From a virus, in the UHGV virus genome UHGV-0351052: a DNA stretch of 64,000 nucleotides; one strand, given 5' to 3'. Of this stretch, positions 28,075 through 34,807 are shown piece by piece. Numbering within the stretch: position 1 is the first letter of the stretch; every line of letters starts with the position of its first letter. Made by a program: the position numbers and the translations under genes. Below the pieces are notes generated by a model that did no database searches, had not been told where the DNA came from, and saw only the letters and a list, made by a program, of their open reading frames with translations.

Positions 28075-28668
28075 CGTTATGTTCAATTGAGCTCGCTAAT
28101 TCTCAACCCGTTCTCTTATGAACTGCTACATATTACTATGCAGACCAGACTATATCACAATCCCAGAGGGATTCTCCCCATTTCGAGTCGCTTGACCCTA
28201 CGTCCGAAGACTAGTCGTTGAACCTTGCTTTGCAATTGTCGCCGTGCCATCGTTTATATGTTGATGGTGATAAATCTTTCTTATCACAATATGGACAATT
28301 CAATTGAATTCTATTTGGATTTAATTTGCATCTGTCATTATGTTTTAAATAAAATCCAGGACCTTTACCAATGTGACCGCAGAAATCACATGTGATTTCT
28401 TTTTGTGCAGGATGGGTCCCGTTCTTAACCATTTCTAATGTTTTTGCTGATGTTCTTTTCTTATGGTCTTCCATCAGAATCTTTAGGTATAGGTCCGTTA
28501 GCATCTATCCAAATTTTTCTATAGTTCAATTGTGCATCCTCTTAAAAGTATAATCATATTATACTAATTAAAGGTGCAAGCAAAACCTTGGCTGCTAGTT
28601 TTCCTATAAAGGACTTTCCAGCAATTAAAGGAGTTTTCGATAAACGTTACCGTTTAAAGGCGCATTTT
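28075..28668 (-). mobile_element. group I self-splicing intron in nrdB (about 594 nt)
   Basis: exon 1 frame terminates after YVSFA; intron splits a Cys codon (T|GT); shares core elements (CAGACTATATC..., CGAGTC-CTTGACCCTAC, GTCGTT) with td intron; ends in G. Confidence 0.75.
28211..28504 (-). pseudogene. truncated intron endonuclease ORF (I-TevIII-like zinc-finger remnant, 97 aa)
   Basis: ORF inside nrdB intron with CxxC/CxxC zinc-finger motifs but no HNH catalytic motif. Confidence 0.6.
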
Positions 28669-29395: not shown

Positions 29396-31660
29396 TCATA
29401 ATTTACAGGATGAACAGTCTTCAGCTTTTGGAGTTTCTATTTCATAATCATCAGTACCAGAACCATCACGGGTATTATGATAATAGAAATTTTTAATGCC
29501 ATAATACCATCCGTATAGCATGTCATCAATCATTATTGACATTGGAACCTTTCCTTTTGGAAAAATCTGCGGGTCATAATATGTATTCGCTGAAGCCGAT
29601 TGACATATCCATTTCAGCATAATAGCTACCTGCGTAAGATAAGGTTTATTACCTTTCTTAGCTAATTTCCATGTATAATCATAGAGGTCTATGTTATGCT
29701 CAATATTGGGCACGACTTGATTAAAGGAGCCCTCTTTTGATTCTTTAACAGAGACTGGTCCACGTGGAGGCTCGATACCGTTTGTACTGTTAGAAACTTG
29801 GGAAGATGACTCACACGGCATAAGTGCTGATAATGTGCTATTACGGATGCCAAAGAGCTTAAGGTCTTCCCGCAGCGACGACCAGTCACAAACGTATTTT
29901 GGAGCTGCGATTTGGTCAATCTTTTTATTGTACCAGTCGATAGGTAATTCGCCTCGAGACCAACGAGTGTCTGAATAATATTCGCAAGGTCCTTTTTCTT
30001 TGGCGAGCTTAATGGATGCTTTAATGAGTCCATACTGTAATCTCTCAAATAGTTCATGTGTTAAATCGTTAGCATCTTCATAAGAAGCAAAGTTACTTGC
30101 CAGCCAAGCTGCATAGTTAGTAACACCTACACCAAGGTTACGACGCTTTTTAGCTTTTTCTGCTTCAGGAACTGGATATCCTTGGTAATCCAAAAGATTA
30201 TCAAGAGCACGAACCTGGACTTCTGCCAATTCATTAATTTTATCTTGGTCTTGCCAGTCAAAATTATCCAGTACGAAGGCAGAGAGAGTACAGAGCCCAA
30301 TTTCAGCATCAGGACTATTCACATCATTTGTTGGAATAGCAATTTCACAGCACAAGTTACTCTGACGAATAGGTGCCTTTTCACGAATAAACGGAGTATA
30401 GTTATTCGTATTATCAATGAACTGCACATAAATCCTTGCTGTTCCTGAACGTTCAGTCATGAGCAATTCAAATAGTTCACGGGCTTTAATACGCTTTTTA
30501 CGAATATTAGGGTCTTTTTCTGCTGCTTCGTATAATTCACGGAAACGGTCTTGGTCTTTAAAATAAGAATAATAAAGCTCTCCGCCCATTTCATGGGGAC
30601 TGAACAAAGTAATGTAATCGTTCTTTCCAAAACGTTCCATCATCAAATCATTCAGTTGAACACCATAATCCATATGACGAATGCGGTTTTCTTCTACGCC
30701 TTTGTTATTTTTCAAAACAAGAAGATTTTCAACTTCCAAATGCCAAATAGGATAATAAGCAGTAGCAGCGCCGCCACGAATTCCACCCTGTGAGCATGAT
30801 TTAACAGCAGTCTGAAAATGTTTCCAAAAAGGAATAACACCAGTATGGCGTACTTCACCCATGCCAATCTTAGAACCTTCGGCACGAATCATACCAACGT
30901 TAATACCGATTCCAGCTCGTTTGGAAATATATTCAACAATTGAAGCAGAAGCCTTATTGATAGACTTCAGTGAATCGCCTGCCTCAATAACAACGCATGA
31001 ACTAAACTGCCGAGTTGGAGTACGGCAACCAGCCATAATAGGAGTTGGTAATGAAATCTGTCGAGTAGATACTGCTTCATAAAAACGGATAACATGTTTT
31101 AATCTATCAACAGGTTCATCTTGATGCAGTGCCATTCCAATAGCCATAAATGCAAACTGTGGAGTTTCATAAATTTGACCAGTGGTTTTATCTTTAACTA
31201 AATATTTTTCTTTTAATTGCATCGCCCCGGAATAAGTAAATTCCATATCCCGTTCGTGCTTAATTTTTGATTCTAAAAATGTAATTTCTTCTGCTGAATA
31301 TTTTGACAATAATTCAGGGTCATATTTACCTTCATTTACACAGTAAGAAATATGGTCAATAAATGAACGTGGTTCATACTGCCCATAAACATGCTTACGA
31401 AGAGCGAACATTAAACAGCGTGCAGCTACATATTGATAATCAGGTTCTTCAACCGAAATAGAATTCGCAGCGGCCTTAATGACAATAGTCTGAATATCAT
31501 CAGTTGTCATTCCATCACGGAGATAAGATTTAATATTTTCATATAATTCATAAGGATCTACTGATGTTCCTTCAGCTGCCCAAGATAAAACTTTAATAAT
31601 TTTTTGTGGGTCAAAGCTCTGAGAAACACCACTACTTTTGATAACATTAATTAATTGCAT
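29396..31660 (-). CDS. nrdA: ribonucleotide reductase large subunit NrdA
   Basis: 754 aa from MQLINVIKSSG (ATG 31660 with GAGGA SD); track ORF extends 32 codons upstream. Confidence 0.95.
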   Translation of the reverse strand: MQLINVIKSSGVSQSFDPQKIIKVLSWAAEGTSVDPYELYENIKSYLRDGMTTDDIQTIVIKAAANSISVEEPDYQYVAARCLMFALRKHVYGQYEPRSFIDHISYCVNEGKYDPELLSKYSAEEITFLESKIKHERDMEFTYSGAMQLKEKYLVKDKTTGQIYETPQFAFMAIGMALHQDEPVDRLKHVIRFYEAVSTRQISLPTPIMAGCRTPTRQFSSCVVIEAGDSLKSINKASASIVEYISKRAGIGINVGMIRAEGSKIGMGEVRHTGVIPFWKHFQTAVKSCSQGGIRGGAATAYYPIWHLEVENLLVLKNNKGVEENRIRHMDYGVQLNDLMMERFGKNDYITLFSPHEMGGELYYSYFKDQDRFRELYEAAEKDPNIRKKRIKARELFELLMTERSGTARIYVQFIDNTNNYTPFIREKAPIRQSNLCCEIAIPTNDVNSPDAEIGLCTLSAFVLDNFDWQDQDKINELAEVQVRALDNLLDYQGYPVPEAEKAKKRRNLGVGVTNYAAWLASNFASYEDANDLTHELFERLQYGLIKASIKLAKEKGPCEYYSDTRWSRGELPIDWYNKKIDQIAAPKYVCDWSSLREDLKLFGIRNSTLSALMPCESSSQVSNSTNGIEPPRGPVSVKESKEGSFNQVVPNIEHNIDLYDYTWKLAKKGNKPYLTQVAIMLKWICQSASANTYYDPQIFPKGKVPMSIMIDDMLYGWYYGIKNFYYHNTRDGSGTDDYEIETPKAEDCSSCKL

Positions 31661-31685
31661 AAGTCCTCTGTAGTAAGTTACCCCA

Positions 31686-31693
31686 TATAAATA
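31686..31693 (+). promoter_or_regulatory. late promoter TATAAATA for free-standing GIY-YIG endonuclease
   Basis: exact TATAAATA 23 nt upstream of ATG 31716; AGGAGA SD between. Confidence 0.5.
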
Positions 31694-31715
31694 TAATTTT
31701 ATATAGGAGAATATA

Positions 31716-32447
31716 ATGAAATCTGGAATATATGCTATTATAAACACTAAAACCAATAAGCACTATATAGGAAGTGCAATTAATTTTGAAGAACGATGGA
31801 AACGACACTTTAAAGATTTAGATAATGGAAATCATCATTCAATAAAGCTGCAGCGTTCTTATAATAAGCATGGGAAAGATGCTTTCGTATGTAAAATCAT
31901 AGAAGAACTTCCATACGAAAAATCTATCATTATTGAACGTGAAAATTATTGGATACATGAATATGACTCAAAGGAAAATGGGTATAATATAGCAGACGCA
32001 TCGTTTGGGGATACCTTATCTCATCACCCAAGAAAGCAAGAAATCCTTAATAAAATTTCAAATGCAATTAAAAATAATAATTCAAAATTATCACCAGAAG
32101 AACTTAAGCAAAAACATGGTAGACCTAAAGATATCAAAGGTAAAACTATAGAAGAACACTATGGGTTAGATCGTGCTATAGAACTAAGCAAAAAGTTCCA
32201 AGAAAGAAACGCTGCGCTTAATATGAAAGGCATCAATAATCCATATTATGGACAGACACATACCAATGAAGTTAGAAAACGAATTTCTGACTCACAAAGA
32301 GGTAAAAAGAAACCCCATCTAAGAGTAAGTATAGATGGGGTAGAATATCCAACAATAGCAGAAGCTGTGCGTCAAACCGGAATAAGCAGAAAACTTATAT
32401 CTAAAAGATGTGCTCTAGATTGTTGGGAATCATATTTATACTGCTAA
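31716..32447 (+). CDS. free-standing GIY-YIG homing endonuclease, I-TevI paralog (243 aa)
   Basis: N-terminal ~100 aa about 70% identical to I-TevI catalytic domain (GIY...YIG, RWKRHFK, NGYNIAD); divergent C-terminal domain; opposite strand to flanking nrdA and td. Confidence 0.85.
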
Positions 32448-32681
32448 AGTTCTACATTCTTCATATTGTTTTTCCGTTAAAACAGTAATATCATAATAAC
32501 AGTCAGAAGAAGTTTTAACTGTAGAAATTTTATTATCAAAATACTCACGAGTCATTTTATGAGTATAATATTTTTTGCCATAAATGATAATAGGCTGATT
32601 TGGTCCTGGAACTTCTAACTCGCTTGGGTTAGGAAGTGTAAAAAGAACTACACCAGAAGTATCTTTAAATCGTAAAATCAT
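32436..32681 (-). CDS. hypothetical protein (81 aa) downstream of td
   Basis: ORF; 3' end overlaps convergent endonuclease gene by 12 nt. Confidence 0.5.
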
Positions 32682-32989
32682 ATTGCCATTTTCCCTTTAA
32701 TTGCTGGATGCGATTCATAATTTTCAAGGATAAAATCTTTCGGTTTCATGTATTCAGTTAACCAGTAAAGCTGTGTTTCGGTGTCACAATTTCCAAACTC
32801 TATAGGCCAATCAATTTTAAGTTCACACAGTTCTTTAGGCTCACGACGTAAAATTTCTTTACATTGCTCAGTATGATTCATATAGATGTGAGTATTACCG
32901 CCAGAAAATATCAAATCTCCTGGGATAAGATTACACATCTTAGCTACAATATGAACTAACGCAGCGTATGATGCAATATTAAATGGTAG
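32678..32989 (-). CDS. td: thymidylate synthase, exon 2
   Basis: starts LPFNIASY directly after intron-terminal ATG; exon 1 + exon 2 = 286 aa. Confidence 0.9.
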
Positions 32990-33435
32990 CATTATGTTCA
33001 GATAAGGTCGTTAATCTTACCCCGGAATTATATCCAGCTGCATGTCACCATGCAGATCAGACTATATCTCCAACTTGTTAAAGCAAGTTGTCTATCGTTT
33101 CGAGTCACTTGACCCTACTCCCCAAAGGGATAGTCGTTAGGCATTTATGTAGAACCAATTCCATTTATCAGATTTTACACGATAAGTAACTAATCCAGAC
33201 GAAATTTTAAAATGCCTCTTCCATCTCTTTTCAAAATCTTTAGCACTTCCTACATATACTTTATTGTTTAAAGTATTTTTAATCTGATAAATTCCGCTTT
33301 TCATAAATACCTCTTTAAATATAGAAGTATTTATGAAAGGGCAGTCCTACAATTTAGCACGGGATTGTCTACTAGAGAGGTTCCCCGTTTAGATAGATTA
33401 CAAGTATAAGTCACCTTATACTCAGGCCTCAATTA
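32990..33435 (-). mobile_element. group I self-splicing intron in td (446 nt) with deleted endonuclease ORF
   Basis: exon 1 ends ...VDVFLG before in-frame TAA; intron 5' TAATTGAGGCCTGAGTATAAGGTG and 3' ...ATG match T4 td intron as recalled; 446 = 1016 - 570. Confidence 0.85.
33137..33304 (-). pseudogene. I-TevI remnant (55 codons; in-frame internal deletion)
   Basis: hand translation MKSGIYQIKNTLNNKVYVGSAKDFEKRWKRHFK|ISSGLVTYRVKSDKWNWFYINA: I-TevI N-terminal 33 aa fused to C-terminal 22 aa at an RHFK repeat. Confidence 0.75.

Positions 33436-34807
<1,372 letters not shown>

Follow-up and report, generated by a model that had tools for sequence, protein, structure and literature searches.

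A probable free-standing, I-TevI-like homing endonuclease gene that takes the place of nrdA.1 between nrdA and td of T4-like phages

The gene considered herein is found in the virus genome UHGV-0351052, of which a single stretch of 64,000 nucleotides (nt), referred to throughout as the window, was analysed. It is an open reading frame (ORF) with an ATG start that extends over 31716..32447 on the + strand and specifies 243 amino acids (aa) plus a stop codon, as read from the window sequence. The surrounding region comprises T4-like (Tequatrovirus) nucleotide-metabolism genes in the minus-strand order frd, td exon 1, intron, td exon 2, nrdA.2, nrdA and split nrdB. Every neighbour is on the minus strand, in keeping with an earlier reading of the bare sequence (hereafter the original prediction), which had placed a 243-aa + strand ORF within a minus-strand block. 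The gene is not intron-borne: its place is between nrdA and nrdA.2, on the strand opposite to both, and it interrupts no gene. The interpretation favoured, and regarded as probable whilst well short of certain, is that the ORF encodes an active I-TevI-family homing endonuclease and is both mobile and free-standing, with a target most probably located in nrdA.1, the gene whose position it occupies. The parts of the element are listed below, with the grounds for each.

31669..32455, + strand: endonuclease cassette of 787 bp (blastn and MAFFT junction mapping against loci without the endonuclease gene)
31686..31693, + strand: TATAAATA, T4 late-promoter consensus motif (direct reading)
31705..31710, + strand: AGGAGA ribosome-binding site, 5 nt before the ATG (direct reading)
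31716..32447, + strand: endonuclease coding sequence, 243 aa plus stop (Pfam, structure matches, and the ratio of non-synonymous to synonymous substitution, dN/dS)
31716..32009, + strand: GIY-YIG catalytic domain, residues 1-98 (identity to I-TevI, invariant residues, structural model)
32010..32225, + strand: linker and helical middle module, residues 99-170 (sits where I-TevI has its zinc finger)
32226..32444, + strand: DNA-binding region with NUMOD3 minor-groove helix and helix-turn-helix, residues 171-243 (Pfam, phmmer, Foldseek)

Pfam analysis of the 243-aa protein identifies a GIY-YIG domain (PF01541, E 9.6e-16) and a NUMOD3 motif at residues 171-191 (E 2e-6), together with a weak match to I-TevI_DNA-bd at residues 201-238 that falls under the curated cut-off; no Pfam family is matched by residues 131-175. 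Comparison with solved structures pairs residues 1-98 with the catalytic domain of I-TevI (1MK0/1LN0, E about 4e-40) and, by phmmer, residues 165-239 with its DNA-binding domain (1I3J, E 3.7e-7). An AlphaFold2 model of the protein, with a mean predicted local distance difference test score (pLDDT) of 82.5, superposes on 1MK0 with a template modelling (TM) score of 0.88 and a root-mean-square deviation of 2.7 Å, and retrieves 1I3J when used as a Foldseek query (E 3e-4). A protein search against I-TevI had been put forward as a check on the original prediction, and Pfam, 1MK0/1LN0 and 1I3J all return the family similarity that it anticipated.

Similarity to T4 I-TevI is distributed unevenly along the protein. 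The catalytic domain is identical at 69 of 98 positions (70 %; residues 1-98 vs I-TevI residues 1-97), in agreement with the figure of about 70 % predicted for the first ~100 residues, and Y6, Y17, R27, H31, H40, E76 and N91 (numbered as in this protein) are invariant in an alignment of 33 family members. The linker stretch next to the catalytic domain retains 13 of 27 residues, residues 101-243 only 41 of 143 (29 %), and identity over 240 residues is 46 %. The original prediction also described the C-terminal half as different from that of I-TevI, which is accurate in the sense of divergence; it is not unrelated, as NUMOD3 and the helix-turn-helix are homologous, whilst the zinc finger is gone. 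A DNA target differing from that of I-TevI is therefore likely. The protein displays the two-domain layout of a catalytic domain, a long linker, and a C-terminal NUMOD3 with helix-turn-helix. In I-TevI proper, the zinc finger in the linker is the distance determinant; alignment with I-TevI reveals no Cys4 cluster here, and the zinc-finger family PF22635 (I-TevI_ZnF) is recorded for the I-TevI clade and not for this one. The main architectural departure from I-TevI is thus the missing zinc finger, with a helical segment in its place, for which helices are predicted at 107-123, 127-134 and 145-168.

The gene is also furnished with expression signals of its own. The motif TATAAATA, which serves as a late promoter in T4, occurs six times on each strand of the 64-kb window, and is kept 22-25 nt 5′ of the ATG in 9 of 9 homologous loci checked, down to a protein identity of 57 %, whilst surrounding bases diverge. 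Its conservation as neighbouring bases change supports a functional late promoter, and we infer, by analogy with T4, that the endonuclease gene would be expressed late. A GGAG ribosome-binding site is present in most homologues, with GGGGAG in PKO111 and only AGGAA in locus L018. The early frd-td-nrdA transcription unit is read from the other strand, and the orientation of the endonuclease gene alone would keep it untranslated early in infection. The late-promoter motif and AGGAGA element of the original prediction are both present, with TATAAATA conserved, and the description of the ORF as a free-standing GIY-YIG gene of the I-TevI family, with intact catalytic residues and a late-promoter motif of its own, holds. 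A scan of 31300-33500 for sigma-70 promoters and terminators gave counts no higher than those from shuffled sequences.

Two further sequence elements were observed around the start of the gene. The block (A)AGTTACCCCA, at 31675..31685 and immediately 5′ of TATAAATA, is conserved in the window, Ozark, three Klebsiella phages, L017 and L019/L020; it is not conserved in L018, the 57 % relative, and bears no resemblance to nrdA.1. It could be an operator, as in I-TevI autorepression, or merely linked sequence. On the nrdA strand, at about 31736..31761 (-) and within the first 50 nt of the endonuclease ORF, TGCTTA is followed after 14 nt by TATAAT, a pair that resembles a T4 MotA-dependent middle promoter and that, about 100 nt upstream of nrdA, could drive that gene. 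It was rejected as a middle-promoter candidate: it is kept only in relatives with at least 74 % identity, coding constraint explains it equally well, and the pattern is expected by chance at ~0.3 per kb.

Comparison of loci with and without the gene defines the element as a cassette that takes the place of a resident gene. In T4, T6 and e11/2, the cassette position is occupied by about 300 bp that contain nrdA.1 (Pfam DUF4326, E 5.5e-22) as well as the final ~12 codons of nrdA.2. The left boundary of the cassette lies 8 bp upstream of the nrdA start codon and the right boundary 8 bp beyond the endonuclease stop codon, with the same boundaries in all eight other Tequatrovirus phages that carry it (carriers). 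In the window, the last ~6 codons and the stop of nrdA.2 come from cassette DNA, giving a C-terminus unlike that of NrdA.2 in T4, T6 and e11/2; in Jiaodavirus it is the last codons of td that the cassette alters. The left junction is always at the conserved nrdA ribosome-binding-site sequence, which is TTGCATAAGTCCTC in both Tequatrovirus and Jiaodavirus. Amongst Acinetobacter phages, comparison of AbTZA1 with AB-Navy71 reveals an 834-bp cassette exactly in place of the 332-bp nrdA.1, and the replacement of nrdA.1 by the cassette is thereby seen in three genera. nrdA.1 is absent from every carrier locus examined, and present in all six of the checked loci that are without this endonuclease clade. 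As a separate observation, KP179 (L011, 3264..3494) and PKO111 (L012) harbour an extra 76-aa ORF between nrdA and the endonuclease gene; it is unrelated to nrdA.1 and nrdA.2, is missing from KpV477 and the window, and has its breakpoint at a short CTCT repeat.

The distribution of the gene is sporadic. A Tequatrovirus-centred search of a phage collection recovered the cassette from 9 of 522 matching records (~2 %), corresponding to eight distinct phages (Ozark, which appears twice, TB004, RPN226, ECO07P5, sutha, CJY920, N2 and LH2). A search centred on Jiaodavirus found it in 18 of 154 matching records (~12 %), these being Klebsiella phages with proteins that are 90-93 % identical and encoded in the same interval; in non-carrier Jiaodavirus phages, the interval holds an nrdA.1 homologue and a 68-aa ORF. 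Both allele types are also present amongst Acinetobacter phages. A protein database search returned at least 23 metagenome contigs that encode an identical protein, along with graded relatives, and in all relatives for which context was retrieved (78, 74, 57, 54, 54, 51 [AbTZA1] and 47 % [Kimel] identity) the gene lies in the nrdA-td interval on the opposite strand. The comparison of this region across related phages, which had been suggested as a check, therefore discloses a presence/absence polymorphism with the cassette in the place of nrdA.1. Sporadic occurrence at one fixed locus with collinear flanks is a trait of the Seg and Mob type.

In a neighbour-joining tree, the window, the Klebsiella phages and uncultured relatives form one clade (bootstrap 100), with AbTZA1 as its sister (bootstrap 75). 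The intron-borne I-TevI proteins form a clade of their own (bootstrap 100), and a third lineage, containing PhT2, Kimel and Ac42, is separate from both; the branching order amongst the three clades is unresolved in this tree. The PhT2 and Kimel genes represent a second I-TevI-like lineage in the nrdA-td interval of Acinetobacter phages (PhT2: L027, 3531..4316), where they adjoin td, and in PhT2 the gene is present together with nrdA.1. In the Acinetobacter phage BRC001 (L038, 3004..4818), two such genes stand in tandem: one of the third lineage, which is intact, and one from the clade of the window, which a frameshift has split into two ORFs. The nrdA-td interval is a hot spot for the I-TevI-like family.

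Comparison of the window gene with eight homologues yields dN/dS values of 0.08-0.19, from which the endonuclease gene is judged to be under purifying selection. When the window is compared with three Jiaodavirus phages, the endonuclease gene has 90-92 % nt identity (79-84 % at third codon positions), whilst the adjacent nrdA and td have 70-73 % (47-54 % at third codon positions). The excess of identity in the gene over its flanks implies that it crossed between genera long after the genomes diverged, and indicates recent transfer between Klebsiella and E. coli T4-like phages. Movement is also apparent within Tequatrovirus: in the three carriers compared, the copies are 98.4-99.6 % identical at the nt level and the linked td alleles only about 80 %, and a near-identical cassette beside td alleles that differ by ~20 % points to spread across genetic backgrounds. 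The only decayed member of the clade is that of BRC001; in all others, the ORF is of full length.

These data bear on two other accounts of the gene. That it is an inactive relic of a past homing endonuclease is extremely unlikely. Many phage homing endonuclease genes do decay, I-TevI and I-TevIII both being truncated in this window, and the split clade member of BRC001 provides an example; against this, the intact ORFs elsewhere, the invariant catalytic residues, a dN/dS of ~0.1, the conserved promoter and ribosome-binding site, and the recency of the transfer between genera are not what a relic would display. The second account, that the nuclease has been domesticated or weaponised and is kept for transcriptional repression, for the exclusion of competitors or for late degradation of other DNA, is improbable. 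It would accommodate the strong purifying selection and long-term retention at one locus, as well as the conserved GTTACCCCA block immediately 5′ of TATAAATA, which is a candidate operator; I-TevI itself also acts as an autorepressor. Purifying selection is, however, also expected for an actively homing gene, and the presence of this one in only about 2-12 % of related records, its frameshift in BRC001 and its recent transfer between genera compose the pattern of a selfish element rather than that of a beneficial gene. Taken together, these observations agree with a selfish element that persists by homing.

With regard to the site of cleavage, a homing endonuclease must spare its own genome, and carriers and non-carriers were compared in this light. 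Amongst Tequatrovirus phages (nine carriers and three non-carriers), no base separates the groups in 460 bp of nrdA or in nrdA.2 (~550 bp of nrdA.2/td aligned). In Jiaodavirus, carriers and non-carriers have essentially the same 3′ half of td, the intron insertion site included, whilst the nrdA genes of AbTZA1 and AB-Navy71 are 99.8 % identical over 1.9 kb, with zero differences within 235 bp of the junction. Flanking substitutions that would confer immunity were rejected on this basis, as no base near the junctions distinguishes carriers in either the Tequatrovirus alignment or the AbTZA1/Navy71 pair. In all three genera, nrdA.1 is the one sequence found in non-carriers and missing from carriers, and it contains nucleotide blocks that these genera have in common, e.g. 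the stretch encoding LGCTCKPxxCHGDIIA. Since the flanks are indistinguishable and nrdA.1 is replaced in three genera, the homing site would most likely be within nrdA.1. We infer that the protein is capable of cleavage, and propose with moderate confidence that its homing site is within nrdA.1 or spans one end of that gene.

A number of points weigh against the reading of the gene as a mobile element that targets nrdA.1. Firstly, the argument presumes that a carrier must differ from its target, and some free-standing T4 endonucleases are said to discriminate weakly or via DNA modification. Secondly, the mutual exclusivity of the endonuclease gene and nrdA.1 is drawn from a sample of a few dozen loci, several of which share a single metagenome project as their source and cannot count as independent. 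Thirdly, the region from nrdA to the endonuclease ATG was searched in three genera for an operator of the I-TevI type that would resemble part of nrdA.1; the best 22-mers had 14-16 matches, which are no better than those of shuffled sequences (mean 14.4-15.2, maximum 17). Finally, the right-hand partner of the cassette varies by genus, being nrdA.2 in Tequatrovirus, td in Jiaodavirus and a 54-aa ORF in AbTZA1, such that transfer between genera required at least one non-homologous junction.

A target outside nrdA.1, located in one of the conserved genes beside it or spanning a junction, is unlikely, though credible; the candidates would be the 5′ end or ribosome-binding-site region of nrdA, and the 3′ end of td or nrdA.2. 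Position beside two highly conserved genes is held by the clade across very divergent phages, as is typical of enzymes that target conserved sequence, and the constancy of the left junction at the nrdA ribosome-binding site, like the altered last codons of td or nrdA.2 in the respective genera, can be read in the same manner. The characterised free-standing endonucleases of T4, moreover, cut neighbouring genes (table in PMC2988022). Near the junctions, however, the flanks are the same in three genera, and a site confined to them would be in the carrier too; a site that spans a junction is compatible with the indistinguishable flanks.

The genes on either side of the element, together with the td intron, are as follows.

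29396..31660, - strand: nrdA, divergent from the endonuclease gene, with an ATG-to-ATG spacing of 55 bp
32436..32681, - strand: nrdA.2 homologue (DUF5496, Pfam E 8e-52), convergent with the endonuclease gene, the 3′ end of which it overlaps by 12 bp
32678..32989, - strand: td exon 2
32990..33435, - strand: td group I intron of 446 nt with a 55-codon I-TevI remnant; a neighbour that is not demonstrably part of the element
33436..33984, - strand: td exon 1

Further along the minus strand, the nrdA of the window is intact and its gap to nrdB is ~50 bp, hence mobE is not found there. In e11/2 (L003), RPN226 (L005), L018 and L028-L037, nrdA is split into two ORFs by an HNH (MobE-like) gene, an arrangement that has been described for Aeromonas phage Aeh1. 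The two halves of the split nrdB of the window are separated by a 97-aa ORF (28211..28504, -) without a Pfam match, which is equal in length to the truncated I-TevIII of the T4 nrdB intron and which, from its position and length, is probably its counterpart.

The td intron was predicted to lie about 550 bp away and to have lost its resident endonuclease, and both points are correct: the distance to the endonuclease stop codon is 542 bp, and I-TevI is reduced to 55 codons. Recombination between a pair of 9-bp direct repeats, CATTTTAAA (encoding HFK), has cleanly removed 570 bp, and the intron measures 446 nt, vs 1016-1017 nt in T4/T6. The in-frame remnant (33137..33304, -) is without most of the catalytic domain, and what is left is identical to the I-TevI of T4/T6. 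The N-terminal coding stretches of the endonuclease gene and of the intron I-TevI in the window are 72 % identical over 99 nt, forming a weak inverted repeat only. The possibility that the gene is a recent copy of the resident I-TevI was rejected, given the 46 % identity of the proteins and their separate clades.

The original prediction further proposed that the enzyme acts on td or nrdA and mobilises the ORF-less intron in trans. In its specific form this would be collaborative homing, with the enzyme cutting intronless td at or near the insertion site and mobilising the ORF-less intron with itself, an explanation that is highly improbable. A number of features do lend themselves to it: the protein is an I-TevI paralogue with a homologous DNA-binding region, its clade always adjoins td, and an intron with a destroyed endonuclease is close by, well within the ~2 kb that applies to homing in trans (PMC2790892) if the putative function of the gene is accepted. 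There are also precedents in F-CphI/psbA and MobE/I-TevIII (PMC2790892), and most of the metagenome contigs shown with the identical protein carry the deleted intron with its 55-codon remnant, although these are largely from one project and so not independent; all of them share the mobE-split nrdA.

Carriage of the gene is, however, not matched by any one state of td. The nine Tequatrovirus carriers of the near-identical gene, the window included, present four types: intronless td (Ozark and ECO07P5), a full intron with intact I-TevI (TB004, RPN226, sutha and LH2), an ORF-less intron of 254 nt in CJY920 (L008) and about 250 nt in N2 (L009), and the 446-nt form of the window. The introns of CJY920 and N2, having no endonuclease ORF, demonstrate that naturally ORF-less td introns exist in at least two size classes. 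Conversely, the same 446-nt deleted intron is found in e11/2, F1 and FN, all of which are without the free-standing gene. Co-inheritance of the endonuclease gene and an ORF-less intron across genomes is accordingly not observed, and an obligate link between them was rejected, as neither the td states of carriers nor a search for the deletion junction reveals a consistent association. Homologues adjoin intronless td in most lineages, and an enzyme that cuts at the insertion site would lead such carriers to cut themselves (Ozark, ECO07P5, all Jiaodavirus carriers examined, L017, L019, L023, L024 and AbTZA1). The td insertion region of Jiaodavirus, being identical in carriers and non-carriers, cannot tell self from target, which argues against it as the target site, and a further point against is that the DNA-binding half of the protein has only ~30 % identity to that of I-TevI and is without the zinc finger. 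The proposed mobilisation of the intron by action on td is thus not upheld. Passive carriage is a separate matter: T4 homing events co-convert up to about 2 kb, by which means MobE carries a defunct I-TevIII intron along (PMC2790892). As the td intron is well inside this range, it is possible that it would be passively co-converted during homing of the cassette.

Returning to the favoured reading, i.e. a mobile element with its target in nrdA.1, the following course of events can be envisaged. Antisense to the early nrdA/td unit, the gene would be silent early in infection and transcribed late from its own TATAAATA promoter. The C-terminal NUMOD3 helix and helix-turn-helix would anchor the protein at a specific DNA site, with a flexible linker bearing the helical module in lieu of a zinc finger, and the N-terminal GIY-YIG domain would cleave some way off from where the protein is bound. 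When a carrier and a phage without the gene infect the same cell, the allele of the latter would be cleaved, most probably inside nrdA.1. Repair of the break from the carrier genome would then cause the cassette to supplant nrdA.1, and some flanking nrdA, nrdA.2 and td sequence may be co-converted.

Amongst characterised systems, the closest in sequence is I-TevI of the T4 td intron (1MK0/1LN0, 1I3J), with which the protein shares the 70 % identical GIY-YIG domain and all of its catalytic residues, a conserved first part of the linker, the NUMOD3 minor-groove helix and C-terminal helix-turn-helix, an upstream TATAAATA, and a similar length (243 vs 245 aa). It differs in that I-TevI is intron-borne, whilst the window gene is free-standing on the strand opposite td; in the helical module that stands for the zinc finger and the low identity (~30 %) of the DNA-binding half; in its separate clade (bootstrap 100); and in its target, which is probably not the td insertion site. 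The likeness to the T4 SegA-G (GIY-YIG) and MobA-E (HNH) genes is one of setting, as these too are free-standing between conserved nucleotide-metabolism genes and polymorphic in presence amongst T-even phages. The window gene, in contrast, opposes the orientation of its neighbours and replaces resident nrdA.1, rather than being an intergenic insertion, and its protein is, amongst those compared directly, nearest to I-TevI in sequence. The protein belongs to the I-TevI family in a broad sense; it lacks two traits of I-TevI proper, namely intron residence and the zinc finger, and its behaviour resembles that of Seg and Mob.

Three further systems are instructive. MobE with the defunct I-TevIII intron (PMC2790892) similarly places a free-standing gene near a group I intron with a crippled endonuclease, within the ~2-kb range of co-conversion, whereas the window gene and the td intron show no consistent co-inheritance in genomes. 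In cyanophage S-PM2, the free-standing F-CphI gene adjoins psbA, which harbours a group I intron without an endonuclease (cited in PMC2790892 and PMC6083498); F-CphI is, however, of another nuclease family and cuts at the intron insertion site, which the data for the window clade argue against, and most members of that clade stand beside intronless td. The PhT2/Kimel lineage, annotated as 'I-TevI-like homing endonuclease', is of the same family and occupies the same strand and interval, yet it belongs to another clade, has extra NUMOD3 repeats, adjoins td, and in PhT2 coexists with nrdA.1.

The window holds a trio of a free-standing gene, a crippled intron endonuclease and an intact intron, and a broader history may be considered, doubtful as it is. 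The nrdA-td interval may host ancient free-standing paralogues of I-TevI that have persisted beside td in several genera of T4-like phages, the move of one such neighbour into the td intron may have founded I-TevI, and the lineage may still circulate ORF-less introns by co-conversion. The move of a free-standing neighbour into an intron is the pathway proposed for the origin of mobile group I introns from the case of F-CphI and psbA.

Several GenBank records label the gene "homing endonuclease", "GIY-YIG nuclease" or "intron-associated endonuclease 1", and a genome paper from 2014 gives a single sentence to "I-TevI-like" genes of Acinetobacter phages (PMC4177764). Beyond such passing annotations, no paper describing the locus, its alleles or its transfer was found in the searchable literature.

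By itself, the gene is one more phage homing endonuclease, and its value lies in the comparative picture that its distribution affords. I-TevI is the workhorse of GIY-YIG engineering, in the form of Tev-TALE and Tev-Cas9 nucleases. A natural variant with the same catalytic domain, a linker free of the zinc finger and another DNA-binding module would help in the study of spacing and of target choice. The endonuclease gene and nrdA.1 constitute a two-allele system in three phage genera, and, with strains that can be grown, homing, co-conversion and transfer between genera become testable. Finally, the comparisons herein document that genetic material has recently passed between T4-like phages of Klebsiella and of E. 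coli, which bears on the exchange of DNA by therapeutic phages.

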